DNA of 64,000 nucleotides from Thermotogota bacterium (GTDB lineage Bacteria; Thermotogota; Thermotogae; MWEM01), in assembly GCA_036743375.1 (NCBI GenBank), contig DAINPP010000002.1, positions 74,757 to 138,756 of the forward strand. Direction: 5' to 3'. The notes beneath the pieces were generated by a model. It did no database searches. It had not been told where the DNA came from and worked only from the letters and a program-made list of their open reading frames with translations. Made by a program: the position numbers and the translations under genes. Below are positions 24,442 through 32,326 of this stretch, one piece after another. How positions within the stretch are numbered: the stretch's first letter is position 1; every line of letters starts with the position of its first letter.

Positions 24442-24555
24442 CTAAAAGGCCCTGAACAGGAAGTAGTTCAGTTTGTGTTGCGAAAACAACTCATCATAAG
24501 TTCTGAGTGTCTTGTCTTGTTTGTCAGCCTTTTTGTAGAAATTATTTTTATCCAT
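24442..24555 (-). CDS. Candidate small protein gene (37 aa: MDKNNFYKKADKQDKTLRTYDELFSQHKLNYFLFRAF) with its own promoter, SD and terminator
   Basis: Absent from the ORF track because it is under 60 aa. GAGGAG SD 6 nt upstream of the ATG. A TTGACA-N17-TATATC promoter at about 24585-24613 (minus strand) and a hairpin plus T-run terminator at 24382-24412 (minus strand). Confidence 0.35.
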   Translation of the reverse strand: MDKNNFYKKADKQDKTLRTYDELFSQHKLNYFLFRAF

Positions 24556-24667: not shown

Positions 24668-25846
24668 CTACATGATGTCACATTCTTTCACAACACCCTC
24701 CATTTCCTGAAAATGTGCAAAGGCTTCAAGTGTCTTGTCAATTTCCCGCTTCATGGCCTCTGTTTTTCTGACACCGGACTGCCACCACCAGTTTTCCACG
24801 ATCAGCCGCTTGCTTTTTTTATCTCTTTTCGCTTCAATTCTGGCGATAAATTTATCTTTATAAATAACAGGCAGCACATAATAACCATATTCCCGTTTAT
24901 CCTTTGGGGTATAGATTTCCCATCTGTATTTAAAATCAAAGAGGGCTTCCACAAGATTCCTATCCCACATGATATTATCCAACGCTGCAATGAATGAACA
25001 GCTTGATCTGACAGTTTTAACCGATTCAAGCAGCTCTGCGTTTTCTGTCGTGATATAGAACGGCTCATTGATTCCCTCAATTTCGACTCTTTGAATAATC
25101 CCTTTTTTCTCAAGGCGCTCGAAAGTCTCGTTGCGGTTTTTGGCTTTGAAATCCAGTATCCCTCCAAATGCGTCACTGCTCTTATTCCACATCAAACCGA
25201 TACCGTTCAGTCTCCTGTGAAGATGCCAGTCCAGATATTCTTCAATCGTTTTATTGGGATCTTCTGCTGTCAATAAATCTGAGGGAATAAGATTCTCTGT
25301 AAAATCAAAATACCGGATGGTTCTTTCTTTTCGCTCAACGATCAATTCACCGTGAAAAAAGAGTGTTTCCAGTACCGCTTTTCCCACATGGGCCTTAGAC
25401 CAGAACCAGTTAATCTTTTTATCCATCTTCAAGTCTTTTGACGACAACGGCCCTTTTTCCCGGATAGTATTCCGAACCGCTTCGACAGCATCTGAATATT
25501 CTCCGGCTTTTATCTTCCGCCATTCGGAAACCTGCTCTCTCTTTCTTTTGAACAGATGCCAGTCTCTGATATTGTAAATCGCCATCTGCTTGTCAAGGCC
25601 ATCCACCAGTCTTCTGTCCTTGTAAAGCAAGTCCCACAGCATCTGAGGGTTATAATCTTTAATCCTGGATTGAAGCACCAGATCCTGATTGATCCCAATC
25701 ACATCAACGGGATCAAATTGTATACATCCCACTTTGTCGATGTAGTTCATGATATCTTCTTTTGTTTTCCCCGTTTTGTGGATTCCGTGGTATTTGATCA
25801 GGAATCTTCCTGCCTGATTTTTTGTTGTTTTTATCATTTGCTTCAC
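24668..25846 (-). CDS. Winged-helix DNA-binding protein of the YcaQ/AlkZ-like (DUF1006/HTH_42) family, a putative DNA glycosylase
   Basis: 392 aa. The N-terminus ...NQAGRFLIKYHGI resembles the A-R-R-F-L-L-x-x-Q-G-L start remembered for this family. The size and lack of other motifs fit. Confidence 0.5.
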   Translation of the reverse strand: MKQMIKTTKNQAGRFLIKYHGIHKTGKTKEDIMNYIDKVGCIQFDPVDVIGINQDLVLQSRIKDYNPQMLWDLLYKDRRLVDGLDKQMAIYNIRDWHLFKRKREQVSEWRKIKAGEYSDAVEAVRNTIREKGPLSSKDLKMDKKINWFWSKAHVGKAVLETLFFHGELIVERKERTIRYFDFTENLIPSDLLTAEDPNKTIEEYLDWHLHRRLNGIGLMWNKSSDAFGGILDFKAKNRNETFERLEKKGIIQRVEIEGINEPFYITTENAELLESVKTVRSSCSFIAALDNIMWDRNLVEALFDFKYRWEIYTPKDKREYGYYVLPVIYKDKFIARIEAKRDKKSKRLIVENWWWQSGVRKTEAMKREIDKTLEAFAHFQEMEGVVKECDIM

Positions 25847-25954
25847 TTCTCTTTTTTGGATTTCCCCTTTTTTATCCCTGAAAAGAATATAGTCTCTTTT
25901 TTATATCATTTTCTTAATTGTTTTTATCCCGAACCCACCCCATCACTACGTGGT

Positions 25955-26083
25955 CCCCCCCGCCCAAAGCGGGGATTCTGCTCTTGGAAGAAAAACATAA
26001 TTCCTTACTTTATCTTTAAAATTTAATTACATCTTATTTGGTCAAATTCACATTTGTCTAATCCCCGCTTGGGGCGGGGGGGG
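25955..26083. repeat. Two GC-rich palindromic hairpin units (23 nt each, mutually reverse-complementary, one mismatch) separated by 82 bp of AT-rich spacer (REP-like pair or one long intercistronic stem)
   Basis: cccccccgcccaaagcggggatt at 25955-25977 and aatccccgcttggggcggggggg at 26060-26082. Each unit is itself a ccccgc/gcgggg hairpin. Confidence 0.6.
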
Positions 26084-26107
26084 TCTTGAGAAAATTACAC
26101 AAACAAA

Positions 26108-26494
26108 TTACTTTCTCTTTCTTATTTCAGCTACTTCAGCAACAAAATCTCTCAAAGATTTCAAAACAAGTTCTATATTTTGTTTCACATCGATATCACT
26201 CACACGAAAAAATACAATCCCAAGTGATTCTAATCTCTTCTGACGTTTTTTATCTTTTTCTACTTTAAAATCATGAGTACATCCATCAATTTCTACAGCC
26301 AACATCAACTCTTTACAGAAAAAATCAACAATATAATGGTCAATTGGTTTTTGTCTGTTGAATTTATAACCTAACAATTTTCGATATTTTATCTCATTCC
26401 TAAGCAATACCTCAGACAGAGTCGACTTCTTCCTCAGCTCCTTCGCCAAAGGCAGTGATCGCTTATCATAACTTAAAACCCGTTCCTTCTCCAT
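26108..26494 (-). CDS. DUF559 endonuclease-like domain protein (Vsr/restriction-endonuclease-like fold)
   Basis: LRKKSTLSEVLLRNEI...LGYKFNRQKPIDHYIVDFFCKELMLAVEIDGCTHD...RLESLGIVFFRV matches the DUF559 pattern as remembered (...GxKFRRQ...YIxDFxC...L.IExDG..H). Confidence 0.65.
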   Translation of the reverse strand: MEKERVLSYDKRSLPLAKELRKKSTLSEVLLRNEIKYRKLLGYKFNRQKPIDHYIVDFFCKELMLAVEIDGCTHDFKVEKDKKRQKRLESLGIVFFRVSDIDVKQNIELVLKSLRDFVAEVAEIRKRK

Positions 26495-26553
26495 TAAACA
26501 CCTTCAAAAAAGGGCAAGTCATAAGACCTGCCCATATTTTCAGTATTTATTTC

Positions 26554-28248
26554 TTACCACTTGGAATCATCGATTGCTTCTATACTCTTTTCTATCCGTG
26601 CAACGGATTCGGCAACCGTTCCGTCGACAAACGGATTCTTTATTTTTGCCACTTCAAGCAGCTGAAGGAATGGTTTTGACCCGCCGGCATTACAGAGATC
26701 CTGATAATCTTTCCATGCCTGTTCCCTGTCTTCGTTCATCTTGTTGTAGAACTGGAAGGCACAGACCTGAGCCAGTGTGTAATCGATGTAGTAGAAAGGC
26801 ACTTCAAAGATGTGGGACTGTCTGAACCACATGGTCCCCTTCACATAGAATTTGTTGTCTTCGTAATCCCTGAGTGGAAGATATTTCTTTTCAATTTCTC
26901 TCCATTTCGCCTTTCTTTCATCCGGTGTTGCCTCGGGATTTTCATATACGAAATGCTGATACTCATCCACCGAGACACCGTAAGGAAGGAAGAGTATTGC
27001 TTCGGAGAGGTGTGAGAATCTGTGTTTCAGCATCTCATCTTCGAAGAAAAGCTGCATCCACGGATAGGTGAAGAATTCCATACTCATCGAGTGAATTTCA
27101 CACGCTTCGAGTGTTGGCCAGACATATTCGGGAGCTTCATAATTTCTGCTTGAAAATACCTGGAAGGCATGTCCCGCTTCATGGGTGAGTACTTCTACAT
27201 CCCCTGCCGTCCCATTAAAGTTTGCAAAGATAAACGGTGCCTTGTAATCAGGCAGGAATGTACAGTATCCGCCGCCCATCTTTCCCTTTCTGGCGAGAAC
27301 ATCAAACAACCCGTGTTCTGTCATGAATGTGAAGAAGTCTGCCGTTTCCTTTGAAAGCTCATCATACATCCTCAGGCCGTTCGCCATGATCTCTTCCGGT
27401 GTTCCCTTTGGATCGGCATTTCCCGAAGTAAATTTCAGCGGTTCATCGTAATATCTGAGTTTATCGTAGCCGAGTCTTGCCGCCTGTCTTTCAAGCAGCT
27501 TTGTCGCTATCGGAACAACGGACTCGTATACCTGATCTCTGTATCCCTTAACCATCTCGGCGTTGTAATCACTTCTGCCGAGTCTGATGTAGCCCAGTTC
27601 GGTGAACGTTTCATAACCGAGTTTCCTTGCCATTCTCGTTCTGACCTTGACGAGATTATCATACAGTTCATCCAGTTCTTTTTCATGGGCTTCAAAGAAA
27701 CCTGCATAGGCTTCATAAGCTGCTTTTCTGATCGTTCTGTCCTTGTTCTGGAAATAAGCTCTCATCTGTGAGAGATTTCTTTCCTCTCCGTCAAACATGA
27801 TTTTGGCCGAAGCGATGAGTTTTGTATGATCTGAACAGAGCTTGTTCTCTTCCTGAAGATCTTCGATGATCTCCGGTTTAAAGGTTTTAAGTTCCATCTC
27901 AGCGATGTTGAAGAGATGTTTTCCCCATTTTCCCTCGAGTTCTTTTCTGAACTTCGATTCAAGGATCGCCTTGTAATACTTGACGACGAGTTCCTGAAAA
28001 AGTGGCTGCGTCTGATCGAAGTATTCCTGCTCCGCTTCATAGAACTTGTCTTCCGTATTCACATCGTATCGGATATGACACAGCGTTCCCATCGTTTCTA
28101 CCGTTCTTCTGAGATCGTTTAGTTCTTTCATGATTGCATTCTGCTTTTCGGCCGTTTCCGCCACTTCAAAATCCGCAAGCAGCTTCTCGAAATCCATTTT
28201 GTAGGTATCAAAATCCGGTCTCTTGTACCCAAATTCTGTAAATTTCAA
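26554..28248 (-). CDS. pepF: Oligoendopeptidase F (M3B family zinc metallopeptidase)
   Basis: HEXXH zinc motif HEAGHAFQ and a downstream E (EACEIHSMSMEF). 564 aa. TTG start with a GGGGGTG SD. Confidence 0.8.
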   Translation of the reverse strand: MKFTEFGYKRPDFDTYKMDFEKLLADFEVAETAEKQNAIMKELNDLRRTVETMGTLCHIRYDVNTEDKFYEAEQEYFDQTQPLFQELVVKYYKAILESKFRKELEGKWGKHLFNIAEMELKTFKPEIIEDLQEENKLCSDHTKLIASAKIMFDGEERNLSQMRAYFQNKDRTIRKAAYEAYAGFFEAHEKELDELYDNLVKVRTRMARKLGYETFTELGYIRLGRSDYNAEMVKGYRDQVYESVVPIATKLLERQAARLGYDKLRYYDEPLKFTSGNADPKGTPEEIMANGLRMYDELSKETADFFTFMTEHGLFDVLARKGKMGGGYCTFLPDYKAPFIFANFNGTAGDVEVLTHEAGHAFQVFSSRNYEAPEYVWPTLEACEIHSMSMEFFTYPWMQLFFEDEMLKHRFSHLSEAILFLPYGVSVDEYQHFVYENPEATPDERKAKWREIEKKYLPLRDYEDNKFYVKGTMWFRQSHIFEVPFYYIDYTLAQVCAFQFYNKMNEDREQAWKDYQDLCNAGGSKPFLQLLEVAKIKNPFVDGTVAESVARIEKSIEAIDDSKW

Positions 28249-28541
28249 AATTAATGCACCCCCGTCTATATTTTATATACCGTTATTATATCAGCTTTTT
28301 TACCGTTTGAAACCGTAAAATCCGCTTATCTGTTCGGAAACATAACTTTTCATTTTTAAATCGTCAATAAACGGCATCATATAATCACCCTCGATGAGGA
28401 GGAACACTCTTTTCCCCTATCCGATCATCCACTTTAAAAGGCCGAACATTGAAAAACAATTTGTTTTTTTGATCAATCTTCACATAAACAGGTGTTCGTA
28501 TACGAAGTAGATCGTGTTTACCGATGGTATGCCCTTTCTCT

Positions 28542-28609: not shown

Positions 28610-31600
28610 ATGAAGAAAATACTTTTTACGTTAATATTAATCATTTCATTAGTCTTTGTGTTTGTATCCTGTGCAAACCTGAAGCTTCCCGAAAGGATCA
28701 TTCACACATTGAATCTGAAAATACCCGGTTTGAACGAAAGATTCAAATTGGCTCCATTCGCCACAGAAACAACTGAAGCTTCGATCGTTTCAGTGCTTCC
28801 TGGATTCAAATTCATCACAGAGGATGGAACGGCGATGAGACTCTATTATGCCACACAAGTCAGCATCGGCTATGATGATATTTCAGAAAAGCTGGAGATT
28901 GATATTCAGTCATTGAAAGATGAGGCCTCTATTTCCTCTATCAGTACGAGCGTCGATATCGCCTTTTCAGATAAACTCGGTGACTTCACACTGCCGACGA
29001 TAGAAGCCTCATTCACACTGCCGGATTTTCAGATGGAAGGGACTTCGCTCATCATCAATTTTGACAAACCGGAGATAAATATCACCATCGCGTCGGAAAC
29101 CGTTGATGTGAACAGGCTTTACGTTGCAACGGAAACGGTCAGAAACATGCTGTTTAACAATACCAACATCACCGACGGGGTCATCATAAAGGGTGGAACC
29201 ATCGACATAACGGCAACAAACACGACCGATGCAACCTTCACCATTTCATTAAAGGCGGAGAATACGCCCAACACATTCGCTCAGTCCGGAGAAATAACGA
29301 TCACCGGAGGAGATAATCCCTCCCCGGTTTCCTTCCGTGGCGGAACGGGCCAGATTAACCTTGATATCGATGACATTCTGAGTGAAGACGCCACCATTAC
29401 GTTCGTTTCAACGGCCCTCGAACTCCCCCTCAAAGGGGGAACGCTGACATTGGACTTTGATATCAGCGATCTGGAAATTCTACTCGATAAGACCGAGTCG
29501 GCTTCAAATACGATCCCCGTCATAGCCGGGTCACCAGTTCGTACATGTGGAACGGTCTTTTCAATCAACACGGGATTGACTGAAGAGGCCACCTTGACAG
29601 GGGGAACACTTCAGGTATCGGGGGAGAACAATGCAGACAGCGAAATAGAATCTATGACCGTGAGTGTTCGAAATGAAAAGGGTGAAGTCATCGCAACACT
29701 CGATCTTGACAACGTGCCGGTATCCGATACTCAATACCGGACAACACCTTTCAGTACACCGGTTTTCATCAGCGACACGGCAAGTCTCACCGTTCTTGCC
29801 ACTTTAACGACGTTGCCCGCAACGGACGGCAGTATTACGATAACGGCAACCTTTAACGGGATACAGGTTCAGATTGCCAATCCGGTGAATTTTTCCGCCG
29901 AAGAGATAGAATTCGGATCGGCTCCGGATTTTGGAAGCAGCAGTCTCTTTACCATAGAACAACTCGCCACCGATACCGGTGAGCTCTCCGTAAATCCGGC
30001 AACACTGACCATCAACGTAAAAGGGCAGCAGGAGCTGGACGGATTGGGACTTGATCTGAATATACTGATCAACGATACGTCGAAGGGGACCTTTGATCTC
30101 AACATGGGGCAGGCCACGGGTCTCGTCATGGACCTCTCGGATACACGCTTCACGAGACAGGGAACCTTCACGATTCTTGCAACCCCTTATCTTGCACCGG
30201 ATAATACGCGGGCCTTCTTCGAAGGGCATCCTGAATTCGAGCCTTTTATCGATATGCAGCTGCTTTACGGAACGGATGTCATCCTCGACACACCAATCAC
30301 ATACAGCACTTCGGAAAGGGTAGAGACCGGACTCACTTCCGATTTTATCTTCGACAGTGTAACACTTAACGGGACACTTTCTTTCGATACGGCTATTCAG
30401 ACCTTGCCTCTTGAAGAGGATTATTCCGCTTCTGTAACGATAAAGGAGATCTTCGGAAAAACGATCGTGGCTACGTCCGTCGGTAATGGCAGCAATCGGA
30501 TAAACATAGATGGAAGTACGATCGGGGCCACCGATCTCGAGATCAGATTTGATTTTGTCACAGCGGAAGAACCGGTCAACATTGACTTCAACACGGAATA
30601 TGATGCCTCCGCCACGGCTATTCCGGACATCGGTATTTCAAACATTGCGAATCTCACGTTAAAGCCGGAAAGCTCATCACAGGCCATTCCACCAGTCAGC
30701 GGTCTTGTTCATGCAACCTTCCAGAGCGCAGACCTGAATATCGCCGTTGATTCCGATGCCCCTGCCATTGCACAGAGATTGTTCACCAGGGATATAAACC
30801 TGGATACGTTCAAGGCCACCTTGACAACGACAACAGATGCGTATCTCATAGAGTTCACGAGATCTGGTGATCTATATACGGCAAGCCTTGCCGATATCGA
30901 ACTCAACGGAGAGGGGGCAACACTGACACTCGGACCCCTTTCACTCGAATTCACCGATGAGGACGCCCTGAATCTCCCAAATCAGATCGATATCGCGGCC
31001 AGCATGACCAACGTCGTTTTCAGTCAGATCACCGTTGATGTCGCCGATTTCTATGACGATCTACAGGTAGCAGAATCTGAAACGTTTGATATACCGGAAG
31101 AGGCAAAGGATTATATCAAAGCCATCGTTCTTTCGGGAGATCCGAGGGTGAAGATCGAATGGTTCAACAACACACCGCTTGAATTCAACATCAGGGCGGC
31201 CGTCTCCAACGATATCCTTGACGAGTTCATCACGCTTTCCAACACGGGTGATGCGGCCAGTACAACCTGGATTGATCTGCCAAAGATCATCGATATAGAA
31301 GGCCTGGATTCCGTTTCGTTTGACCTTGAAGCGTCCCCGAATGGGCTCAATGCTGCTGAACAGCAGCTCACGATCAACAATTTCGTCTTCGACGCGCTGG
31401 ATGATTACAGAGTTGCGGCTACGGTTACCTTCAGAGATTTTTCTGAAAGCGTCATGCCGAGAGGTGAGACGATTACGATCAGTGAAGTCGTTCTCTATGG
31501 GGAAATCGATGAAGCCCTGTTCGATTTCATGAGGGATCAATTACCGGCTTTCTGGACGGACTATGCCGGTCAGATTCAGATCGATGATACACTGACGGAG

Positions 31601-32326
31601 GCCTTTGTAGAAATTGATGAAAAGATTCTGACTGAAAATCCGGATCTTGTGGCTACACTAACCATCTCCGGTAAGCCATCGGGCATCATCATCTCTGAAA
31701 TTCCGATAACGCTCGATACCGACACTCATTTTGAAGCGAATATCAATGAATTTCTTTCAAACCCGAGTACGGATCTTTCGTTCGGCATCGTTGCCCAAAT
31801 TGATGAGGCAACGGTAAATCTTGACAGTATCAGCGAAGATGCAACAGACCTGTTCGCCGCCAGTGTAACGGTCAGCATACCGGTCAGGTTCACGGTGGCT
31901 GAAGATATTTCGCTGCTCAGTGATACGATAAATCTCGAGGATGAACTGAACATCGAACTGAATGACCTGGATGCCATACTGAACATGATTCAATCCGCTA
32001 CCGCCGTTGTAACGGCTGTCAACAACTCCGGTGTTTCGGTTAAACTGGAACTCAGATGGGATTCGGCAGCCGGTGAACCGATCATCACCAATCCGCAGGG
32101 TGGGGCACTTGTTACACTAACAGACGGCACGTCCTCAAAATTCATCGTTACACTCGGTTCCGGAAACGATGCAAAGGACTTGCTTGAAAAGAATATCTAT
32201 GCACACATCATTCTTCCCGATTCAAACGGAGAATATTACACCATCATGGGAGATTCCGCCGTTGATCTTTCTATCTACCTCGATACGGTCGTAAGAGTAG
32301 AAATCCCCCTGGAATCTGAAAGGTAG
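28610..32326 (+). CDS. Giant acidic Thr/Ser/Asp/Glu/Ile-rich lipoprotein (1238 aa), likely a cell-surface protein. No recognisable enzymatic domain
   Basis: Signal peptide with lipobox MKKILFTLILIISLVFVFVS-C. Only one other Cys. Low-complexity beta-rich composition. Own extended -10 promoter (TGcTATAAT), GGGAGG SD, and a strong bidirectional terminator directly downstream. Confidence 0.75.
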   Translation: MKKILFTLILIISLVFVFVSCANLKLPERIIHTLNLKIPGLNERFKLAPFATETTEASIVSVLPGFKFITEDGTAMRLYYATQVSIGYDDISEKLEIDIQSLKDEASISSISTSVDIAFSDKLGDFTLPTIEASFTLPDFQMEGTSLIINFDKPEINITIASETVDVNRLYVATETVRNMLFNNTNITDGVIIKGGTIDITATNTTDATFTISLKAENTPNTFAQSGEITITGGDNPSPVSFRGGTGQINLDIDDILSEDATITFVSTALELPLKGGTLTLDFDISDLEILLDKTESASNTIPVIAGSPVRTCGTVFSINTGLTEEATLTGGTLQVSGENNADSEIESMTVSVRNEKGEVIATLDLDNVPVSDTQYRTTPFSTPVFISDTASLTVLATLTTLPATDGSITITATFNGIQVQIANPVNFSAEEIEFGSAPDFGSSSLFTIEQLATDTGELSVNPATLTINVKGQQELDGLGLDLNILINDTSKGTFDLNMGQATGLVMDLSDTRFTRQGTFTILATPYLAPDNTRAFFEGHPEFEPFIDMQLLYGTDVILDTPITYSTSERVETGLTSDFIFDSVTLNGTLSFDTAIQTLPLEEDYSASVTIKEIFGKTIVATSVGNGSNRINIDGSTIGATDLEIRFDFVTAEEPVNIDFNTEYDASATAIPDIGISNIANLTLKPESSSQAIPPVSGLVHATFQSADLNIAVDSDAPAIAQRLFTRDINLDTFKATLTTTTDAYLIEFTRSGDLYTASLADIELNGEGATLTLGPLSLEFTDEDALNLPNQIDIAASMTNVVFSQITVDVADFYDDLQVAESETFDIPEEAKDYIKAIVLSGDPRVKIEWFNNTPLEFNIRAAVSNDILDEFITLSNTGDAASTTWIDLPKIIDIEGLDSVSFDLEASPNGLNAAEQQLTINNFVFDALDDYRVAATVTFRDFSESVMPRGETITISEVVLYGEIDEALFDFMRDQLPAFWTDYAGQIQIDDTLTEAFVEIDEKILTENPDLVATLTISGKPSGIIISEIPITLDTDTHFEANINEFLSNPSTDLSFGIVAQIDEATVNLDSISEDATDLFAASVTVSIPVRFTVAEDISLLSDTINLEDELNIELNDLDAILNMIQSATAVVTAVNNSGVSVKLELRWDSAAGEPIITNPQGGALVTLTDGTSSKFIVTLGSGNDAKDLLEKNIYAHIILPDSNGEYYTIMGDSAVDLSIYLDTVVRVEIPLESER

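Follow-up and report, generated by a model that had tools for sequence, protein, structure and literature searches.

Two GC-rich palindromic units stand in the AT-rich spacer between a DUF559 gene and an AlkZ-like (YcaQ family) gene, and the locus raises the question of what these units are and how they came to be there. The sequence-only reading of the window (here the whole stretch of 64,000 nucleotides analysed) had offered three answers, namely a REP-like pair, a long stem in the intercistronic RNA and the terminal repeats of a tiny MITE-like insertion, and had wondered whether the two genes and the repeat might together serve in DNA repair or defence as a small module. On balance, the site is probably explained by one small insertion of the mobile-element kind in an older hairpin, with no DUF559–AlkZ module involved.

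The palindromic element and its neighbours

The annotations proposed for the two neighbouring genes are right according to Pfam, and both genes lie on the minus strand, a point on which the earlier reading had been silent. The order of transcription on that strand is M3 peptidase, terminator, DUF559, repeat, AlkZ and phosphoglucomutase, and the features of the locus are the following:

28248..26554, minus strand: M3 oligoendopeptidase (M3 peptidase) gene, first in the order of transcription
26512..26533, minus strand: canonical intrinsic terminator of the M3 gene, GGGCAGGTCTTATGACTTGCCC followed by TTTTTT, conserved in all congeners
26108-26494, minus strand: DUF559 gene, 128 aa, intact in the strain of the window (Pfam PF04480, E=6e-27)
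25955..26082, minus strand: palindromic element with full 23-nt arms, 128 nt, missing from the otherwise collinear loci L047/L048
26060..26082, minus strand: arm 1 (5′ on the transcribed minus strand), CCCCCCCGCCCCAAGCGGGGATT, with its own CCCCGC/GCGGGG hairpin of 6 bp
25978..26059, minus strand: AT-rich interior between the arms, 82 nt, 26% GC
25955..25977, minus strand: arm 2 (3′ on the minus strand), AATCCCCGCTTTGGGCGGGGGGG, with its own CCCCGC/GCGGGG hairpin
24668-25846/25837, minus strand: AlkZ-like (YcaQ family) gene (Pfam PF06224, E=8e-50)

The AlkZ-like product comprises 389 aa when read from the ATG at 25837, the start used in public assemblies, and its gene is retained in all congeners. 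Several observations concern the wider surroundings. Between AlkZ and phosphoglucomutase, a 37-codon open reading frame (24442-24555, minus strand) is called in every public assembly of the species; it has no domain, and the congener spacer at this place is of similar length. On the other side, a 1238-aa open reading frame with no Pfam domain on record (28610-32326, plus strand) adjoins the locus in all congeners. In the interval from the M3 peptidase to the 1238-aa gene, these congeners hold a three-gene block of ~2.9 kb (L044 3241-5705), encoding isochorismatase-like, pyridine-nucleotide disulfide oxidoreductase and radical SAM proteins, at a place where the window has just 196 nt (28308-28503).

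The repeat itself conforms to its first description as two reverse-complementary 23-nt units, 82 bp apart with one mismatch, each of them a small hairpin. On the forward strand, the arms read CCCCCCCGCCCAAAGCGGGGATT (25955-25977) and AATCCCCGCTTGGGGCGGGGGGG (26060-26082); they form a mutual inverted repeat that is 96% complementary, the single mismatch lying in the hairpin loop, and each contains a CCCCGC-N5-GCGGGG hairpin. The sharp contrast in composition with the AT-rich surroundings is likewise confirmed: the arms have GC contents of 74% and 78%, as against 26% for the loop, 32% for the remaining spacer and 44% for the window. Allowing for up to three mismatches, the unit occurs at these two sites only in the 64-kb window and not once in 100 dinucleotide-preserving shuffles. 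The GC-rich inverted repeat is real and non-random. Nothing similar to the 82-nt interior was found elsewhere in the window, and congener loci, plasmids and phages likewise contain nothing like it. A 24-codon minus-strand reading frame running from the loop through arm 2, spotted by eye, was dropped for want of supporting evidence.

Proteins identical to DUF559, AlkZ and M3 of the window are encoded on anaerobic-digester metagenome contigs and in a Thermotogota bacterium MAG. The element is found in every assembly of the species that spans the spacer (at least 12 assemblies), and the spacer differs among them by two SNPs only, one just outside arm 1 (26083) and the other in the loop (26012), so that the paired arms are unaffected. 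Where a strain has A at 26083, the sequence is CTCAAGAA, and the ancestral flank defined below is restored exactly. Within the species the insertion is fixed across the strains sampled, and the two sister lineages lack it.

History of the site in three congeneric lineages

The three congeneric lineages are roughly equidistant (M3 88-90% aa identity, AlkZ 72-79%). In L047/L048 (M3 peptidase 90% aa identity), M3, DUF559, a 289-nt spacer and AlkZ follow one another. Just past the DUF559 stop, this spacer contains a near-perfect hairpin with a 24-bp stem, TATCTCAAGAACCCTCCCTACCAC-gta-GTGGTGGGGAGGGTTCTTGAGATA, which folds at -45.3 kcal/mol (z = -9.3) and is followed by a T-rich stretch. On the minus strand of the window, the same hairpin is split, with CTCAAGA and a C-run directly 5′ of the element and ACCAC-GTA-GTGATGGGGTGGGTTCGGGATA directly 3′ of it. 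Gap-affine alignment of the window with L048 yields one clean 120-nt gap (26075..25956) between ...AACCCTCCC and TACCAC. Comparison with L048 thereby places the inserted block and the remains of the older hairpin:

26076..26093, minus strand: what is left of the older hairpin's outer 5′ arm, (T)TTCTCAAGA plus C-run, which aligns to L048 TATCTCAAGAACCCTCCC
25956-26075, minus strand: inserted block according to pairwise gap-affine alignment with the congener, 120 nt
25925..25954, minus strand: rest of the older hairpin
25954-25950, minus strand: inner 5′ arm of the older hairpin, ACCAC
25949-25947, minus strand: loop of the older hairpin, GTA
25946-25925, minus strand: 3′ arm of the older hairpin, GTGATGGGGTGGGTTCGGGATA, partly degenerated

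Since both halves of the L048 hairpin flank the repeat in the window, this comparison identifies the repeat as an insertion into the hairpin's 5′ arm. The L048 palindrome is by all appearances older than the GC-rich units, and units and loop appear to have been inserted into its 5′ arm in the lineage of the window. A small, non-coding and species-specific insertion of 120 or 128 nt would thus have landed in the 5′ arm of a terminator-like hairpin with a 24-bp stem located 3′ of DUF559, and the two GC-rich units would be the inverted ends of that single insertion. As for the hairpins that homologous spacers of relatives might have been expected to share, L047/L048 have no GC-rich CCCCGC units in theirs, and loci of the L044 type have lost the region. 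A 47-nt T-rich stretch that comes right after the older hairpin in L048 (1616-1662) has no counterpart in the window (25927/25928), so that the possible U-tract tail of the older hairpin would also be gone there.

The third lineage has lost the site altogether. In L044 (a 3.98-Mb contig), L053-L055 and L056, only 150 nt separate M3 and AlkZ; what they keep is the M3 terminator with the opening ~35 nt of the DUF559 frame, and the remaining DUF559 sequence and the hairpin region are lost. The scar at L044 7916-7950, also present in L053-L056 and corresponding to window positions 26494..~26460, shows the DUF559 start followed by a jump to the AlkZ leader, which amounts to a deletion of ~590 bp that removes DUF559 and the hairpin. 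Window and L044 are otherwise collinear over ~10.4 kb at 81% nucleotide identity, with the M3–AlkZ site as the sole large indel.

DUF559 is also decaying where it persists. In L047/L048, its codon 93 is an in-frame TGA (L048 1445-1447), with the downstream frame still conserved, and some strains of the window's own species (L059, L060) show an AGA-to-TGA nonsense polymorphism at codon 115 (window 26152). The pattern suggests that the common ancestor already had DUF559 at the site and that loss of the gene is now under way.

This history bears directly on the proposal that DUF559, the structured repeat and AlkZ constitute a small DNA repair or defence module, which is hardly credible. Both proteins act on DNA, and PADLOC reports a weak match of DUF559 to its model of a methyl-directed restriction enzyme (E=1.6e-6). 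AlkZ, however, has no PADLOC match, and DUF559 is nonsense-mutated or deleted in sister species while AlkZ is kept. Nor is the adjacency of the two genes conserved in relatives, as such a module would lead one to look for: AlkZ homologues at 60-64% identity adjoin Fic, cellulase or alcohol dehydrogenase (ADH) genes, and in the next genus neither DUF559 nor AlkZ follows M3. The adjacency appears to be limited to one genus and to be decaying within it, and the repeat would be a late insertion. The suggestion of a DUF559–AlkZ repair or defence module is thereby removed.

Folding of the spacer RNA

On the transcribed minus strand, the arms of the element are predicted to pair over 22-23 bp and to enclose the 82-nt loop, with a folding energy of -57.6 kcal/mol (z = -7.0). 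Taken alone, arm 1 (-12.5 kcal/mol) and arm 2 (-13.5 kcal/mol) form hairpins of 6-8 bp, and the whole spacer folds with z values of -3.6 and -4.8. In the DUF559–AlkZ transcript, the arms would thus be expected to fold either as two small hairpins or as one 23-bp helix. This predicted helix would replace the destroyed hairpin of -45 kcal/mol as a passive 3′-end or insulator structure.

Neither arm nor the long helix is followed by a U-tract, and a terminator scan is silent at the element; read along the minus strand, AGACAAAUG comes directly after arm 1 and ACCACGUAG directly after arm 2. Because of this lack of a U-tract, the element is not an intrinsic terminator. A search of Rfam gives nothing at gathering score, and matches to plant miRNA hairpins that appear at E<=10 are spurious (16-27 bits against thresholds of 90-245). 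The loop contains one weak sigma-70-like match, TAGACA-18-TAAGAT (26060..26031), which faces AlkZ.

A selected cis-acting RNA element, such as an RNase III processing site, a 3′-end stabiliser or the carrier of a new AlkZ promoter, would account for a structure of such predicted stability, for its fixation within the species with stems free of SNPs, and for the promoter-like match oriented towards AlkZ. We nevertheless consider it distinctly improbable. The element is missing from both sister lineages, which keep AlkZ; no Rfam family rises above noise; the region has no excess of promoter-like sites (5, with 3.2 expected); termination would lack its U-tract; and the upstream gene, DUF559, is itself decaying. 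Since the congeners lack the element, neither conservation nor covariation stands behind an RNA function. The proposed stem with its 82-nt loop is thus possible on thermodynamic grounds, the arms being predicted to pair, and as a functional element it lacks the backing of conservation. The insertion is probably close to neutral.

Further copies, known elements and mode of insertion

With up to 6 of the 23 positions substituted, no extra copy of the unit was found in the window, in ~15 kb of additional flanking sequence (L062-L065) or in the congener loci (~60 kb), and blastn with the element or its loop gave no match elsewhere in the window, in the extra flanks or in the congener loci. The copies by which a recurrent element would be recognised are therefore missing from the ~80 kb of source-genome DNA covered by this search, and a dense REP family is excluded within it.

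Among 185,579 species genomes, the pattern AATCCCCGCTTNGGGCGGGG has 24 single matches, which span Alphaproteobacteria, Patescibacteria, Bacteroidota, Clostridia and others and include no doublet, no multi-copy genome and no member of Thermotogota. The source species itself is unmatched in this set, in which it is apparently not represented or has its contig broken at the element. Most of the 24 matches have the form AAAAATCCCCGC-TTNG-GGCGGGGATTTT, an ordinary intrinsic terminator that is often bidirectional. Such terminators, which occur once each in the 24 genomes, match the inner 20 nt of each arm exactly. However, most of these are single and lie between A- and T-tracts, whereas the element is an inverted pair with a C- or G-run as outer flank and no U-tract. 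The likeness reflects convergence on a very stable hairpin rather than homology. The hairpin AATCCCCGC-TTNG-GGCGGGGATT, found mostly between A- and T-tracts, recurs as a generic single-copy terminator in many unrelated phyla (L020-L043); matches to this motif are no evidence of homology and can mislead motif searches.

Other collections yielded nothing related. A doublet pattern applied to a metagenome collection to which the source contigs do not belong returned four unrelated long palindromes. In viral contigs the strict unit pattern has no match, and the 10 matches of a loose pattern are all attributable to chance in GC-rich DNA. Searches of plasmids and phages with the element by blastn found nothing. 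An integron attC site, which a small orphan reading frame beside an imperfect palindrome might bring to mind, was rejected, as RYYYAAC/GTTRRRY core sites are absent and the flanking genes are syntenic chromosomal ones.

In its architecture, the element comes close to the REP doublets, REPINs and BIME-like elements, with which it shares two short GC-rich inverted palindromic units in an extragenic position downstream of a gene. The units of REP dimers, spaced by 20-100 bp, may fold each on its own or together into a large stem-loop, and dimers of some REP families are inserted inside longer palindromes (Di Nocera et al., PMC3733652); the choice between two hairpins and one long stem-loop, the lack of a target duplication and the location inside a palindrome are common to both (PMC3733652). 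Two differences set the element apart: its units end in a C/G-run and in ATT/AAT rather than in a GTAG/CGTC tag, and one doublet without singletons is present in ~80 kb, with no RAYT among the Pfam-annotated genes. A GTAG 5 nt from arm 2 was considered as a REP tag and rejected, as it belongs to the older hairpin's loop and L048, which is free of the element, has it too. To our knowledge, Thermotogota is not a phylum known for REPs.

That the unit nevertheless belongs to a multi-copy REP or REPIN family, kept by a RAYT transposase encoded elsewhere in the genome, is quite doubtful. The arrangement of inverted units 82 bp apart in a palindrome is exactly that of a REP doublet, and two short-read assemblies break in or beside the element (end of L007 and start of L057, end of L009; ~26002, 25936, 26065), as contigs might do at a repeat. 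Yet typical REP densities would give several copies in ~80 kb, where a single doublet is seen, the unit ends lack the GTAG/CGTC tag, and no Thermotogota representative genome contains the unit. The breaks, moreover, do not match the arm boundaries, which suggests a drop-out of coverage at a GC homopolymer hairpin, and they were rejected as a sign of repetition. The REP-like pair of the sequence-only reading, in short, is a doublet in shape that neither recurs in the ~80 kb nor carries the tag.

The comparison with bacterial MITEs such as Correia/NEMIS, ERIC/IRU (~127 bp), RUP and Nezha has a similar outcome. Shared features are a non-coding sequence of ~100-150 bp with terminal inverted repeats, an intergenic and co-transcribed position, presence that differs between close relatives, and a long hairpin possible in the RNA. 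The element differs from these MITEs in having no target-site duplication, no further copies and no parent insertion sequence with matching ends, and from the DDE-type MITEs in that its ends are themselves hairpins. The proposal of terminal repeats of a tiny MITE-like insertion thus holds in one respect: congener comparison, with the empty orthologous site of L047/L048, identifies the units as terminal inverted repeats of an insertion around a short non-coding sequence. In the other, neither a target-site duplication nor an additional copy or parent insertion sequence was found in the searched DNA and collections.

A third point of comparison is provided by the PATEs, palindrome-associated elements derived from IS200/IS605 that bear a hairpin at each end. 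Small size, terminal hairpins and the lack of a target duplication are common to both, and insertion into single-stranded or hairpin-forming DNA is plausible for both. The end hairpins of PATEs, however, are direct and not mutually complementary beyond the stem, whereas the ends of the element are complementary along their full 23 nt. Neither TnpA nor TnpB is encoded nearby, and the surrounding genes that have Pfam calls include no transposase or RAYT. The best reading is that the element resembles a REP doublet or a MITE-type palindromic insertion, and it is filed here in neither family.

The junctions show no direct repeat or target-site duplication under the 120-nt, the 128-nt or other choices of boundary. 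The element is flanked by CTCAAGA(A/C) and ACCAC, and the C-rich arm of the target (CCCTCCC in L048) falls at the same place as the outer 7 C of arm 1, so that the C-run of arm 1 may be partly derived from the target. Because of this coincidence, boundaries and mechanism are ambiguous. A 120-nt block ending in a G-run could have been inserted beside the C-run; equally, a 128-nt element with full 23-nt ends could have replaced ~8 nt of similar target sequence through microhomology.

Hairpin ends combined with the lack of a target duplication are typical of REP doublets and IS200/IS605-type elements and not of DDE-type MITEs. On account of these two properties, single-strand mobilisation of the HUH/Y1 type would fit the element better than DDE cut-and-paste. 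The insert would then count among the non-autonomous mobile elements, as one of either the REP-doublet (REPIN) or the MITE kind. What speaks against such an origin is that no further copy or related doublet turned up in the DNA and collections searched, that the 185,579 species genomes gave no Thermotogota match, that a target-site duplication is lacking, that neither transposase nor RAYT is seen near the locus, and that the boundaries are ambiguous.

The palindrome could instead have been made locally, with no mobile element involved, either as a larger insertion sequence that decayed with its interior deleted or, at the old hairpin, by microhomology-mediated repair or a template switch during replication; this second route would have made or lengthened the inverted arms by quasi-palindrome correction. 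Such an origin is unlikely, though it deserves some weight. Hairpins are hot spots for template switching, the element is single-copy wherever it was searched for, target-site duplication is absent, and the outer 7 nt of arm 1 match the C-rich arm of the target, with the G-run opposite resembling a copy of it. Against this, the 82-nt interior and the inner 16 nt of the arms have no match in the locus, where no donor is seen, and the insertion has in other respects a clean form, its 23-nt ends differing by one mismatch, as a ready-made element would give.

The repeat, in sum, is a lone palindromic insertion, specific to its lineage, that sits in an older terminator-like hairpin downstream of a gene in the course of being lost; as such it is ordinary genomic litter. 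Its importance is small; it offers a tidy example of an extragenic palindrome nested in a terminator hairpin, for which the filled, the empty and the deleted site are all available across three sister species. We know of hardly any description of such elements in Thermotogota. A bolder and tentative reading, to which we attach a low probability, would make it the first sighted copy of an undescribed low-copy REPIN- or MITE-like family in an uncultured lineage of Thermotogota that homes into existing terminator hairpins without duplicating the target and moves via single-stranded DNA, served by an HUH-type enzyme whose gene lies in another part of the genome. Even if true, such a new mobile family, low in copy number and targeting hairpins, would hold modest interest.
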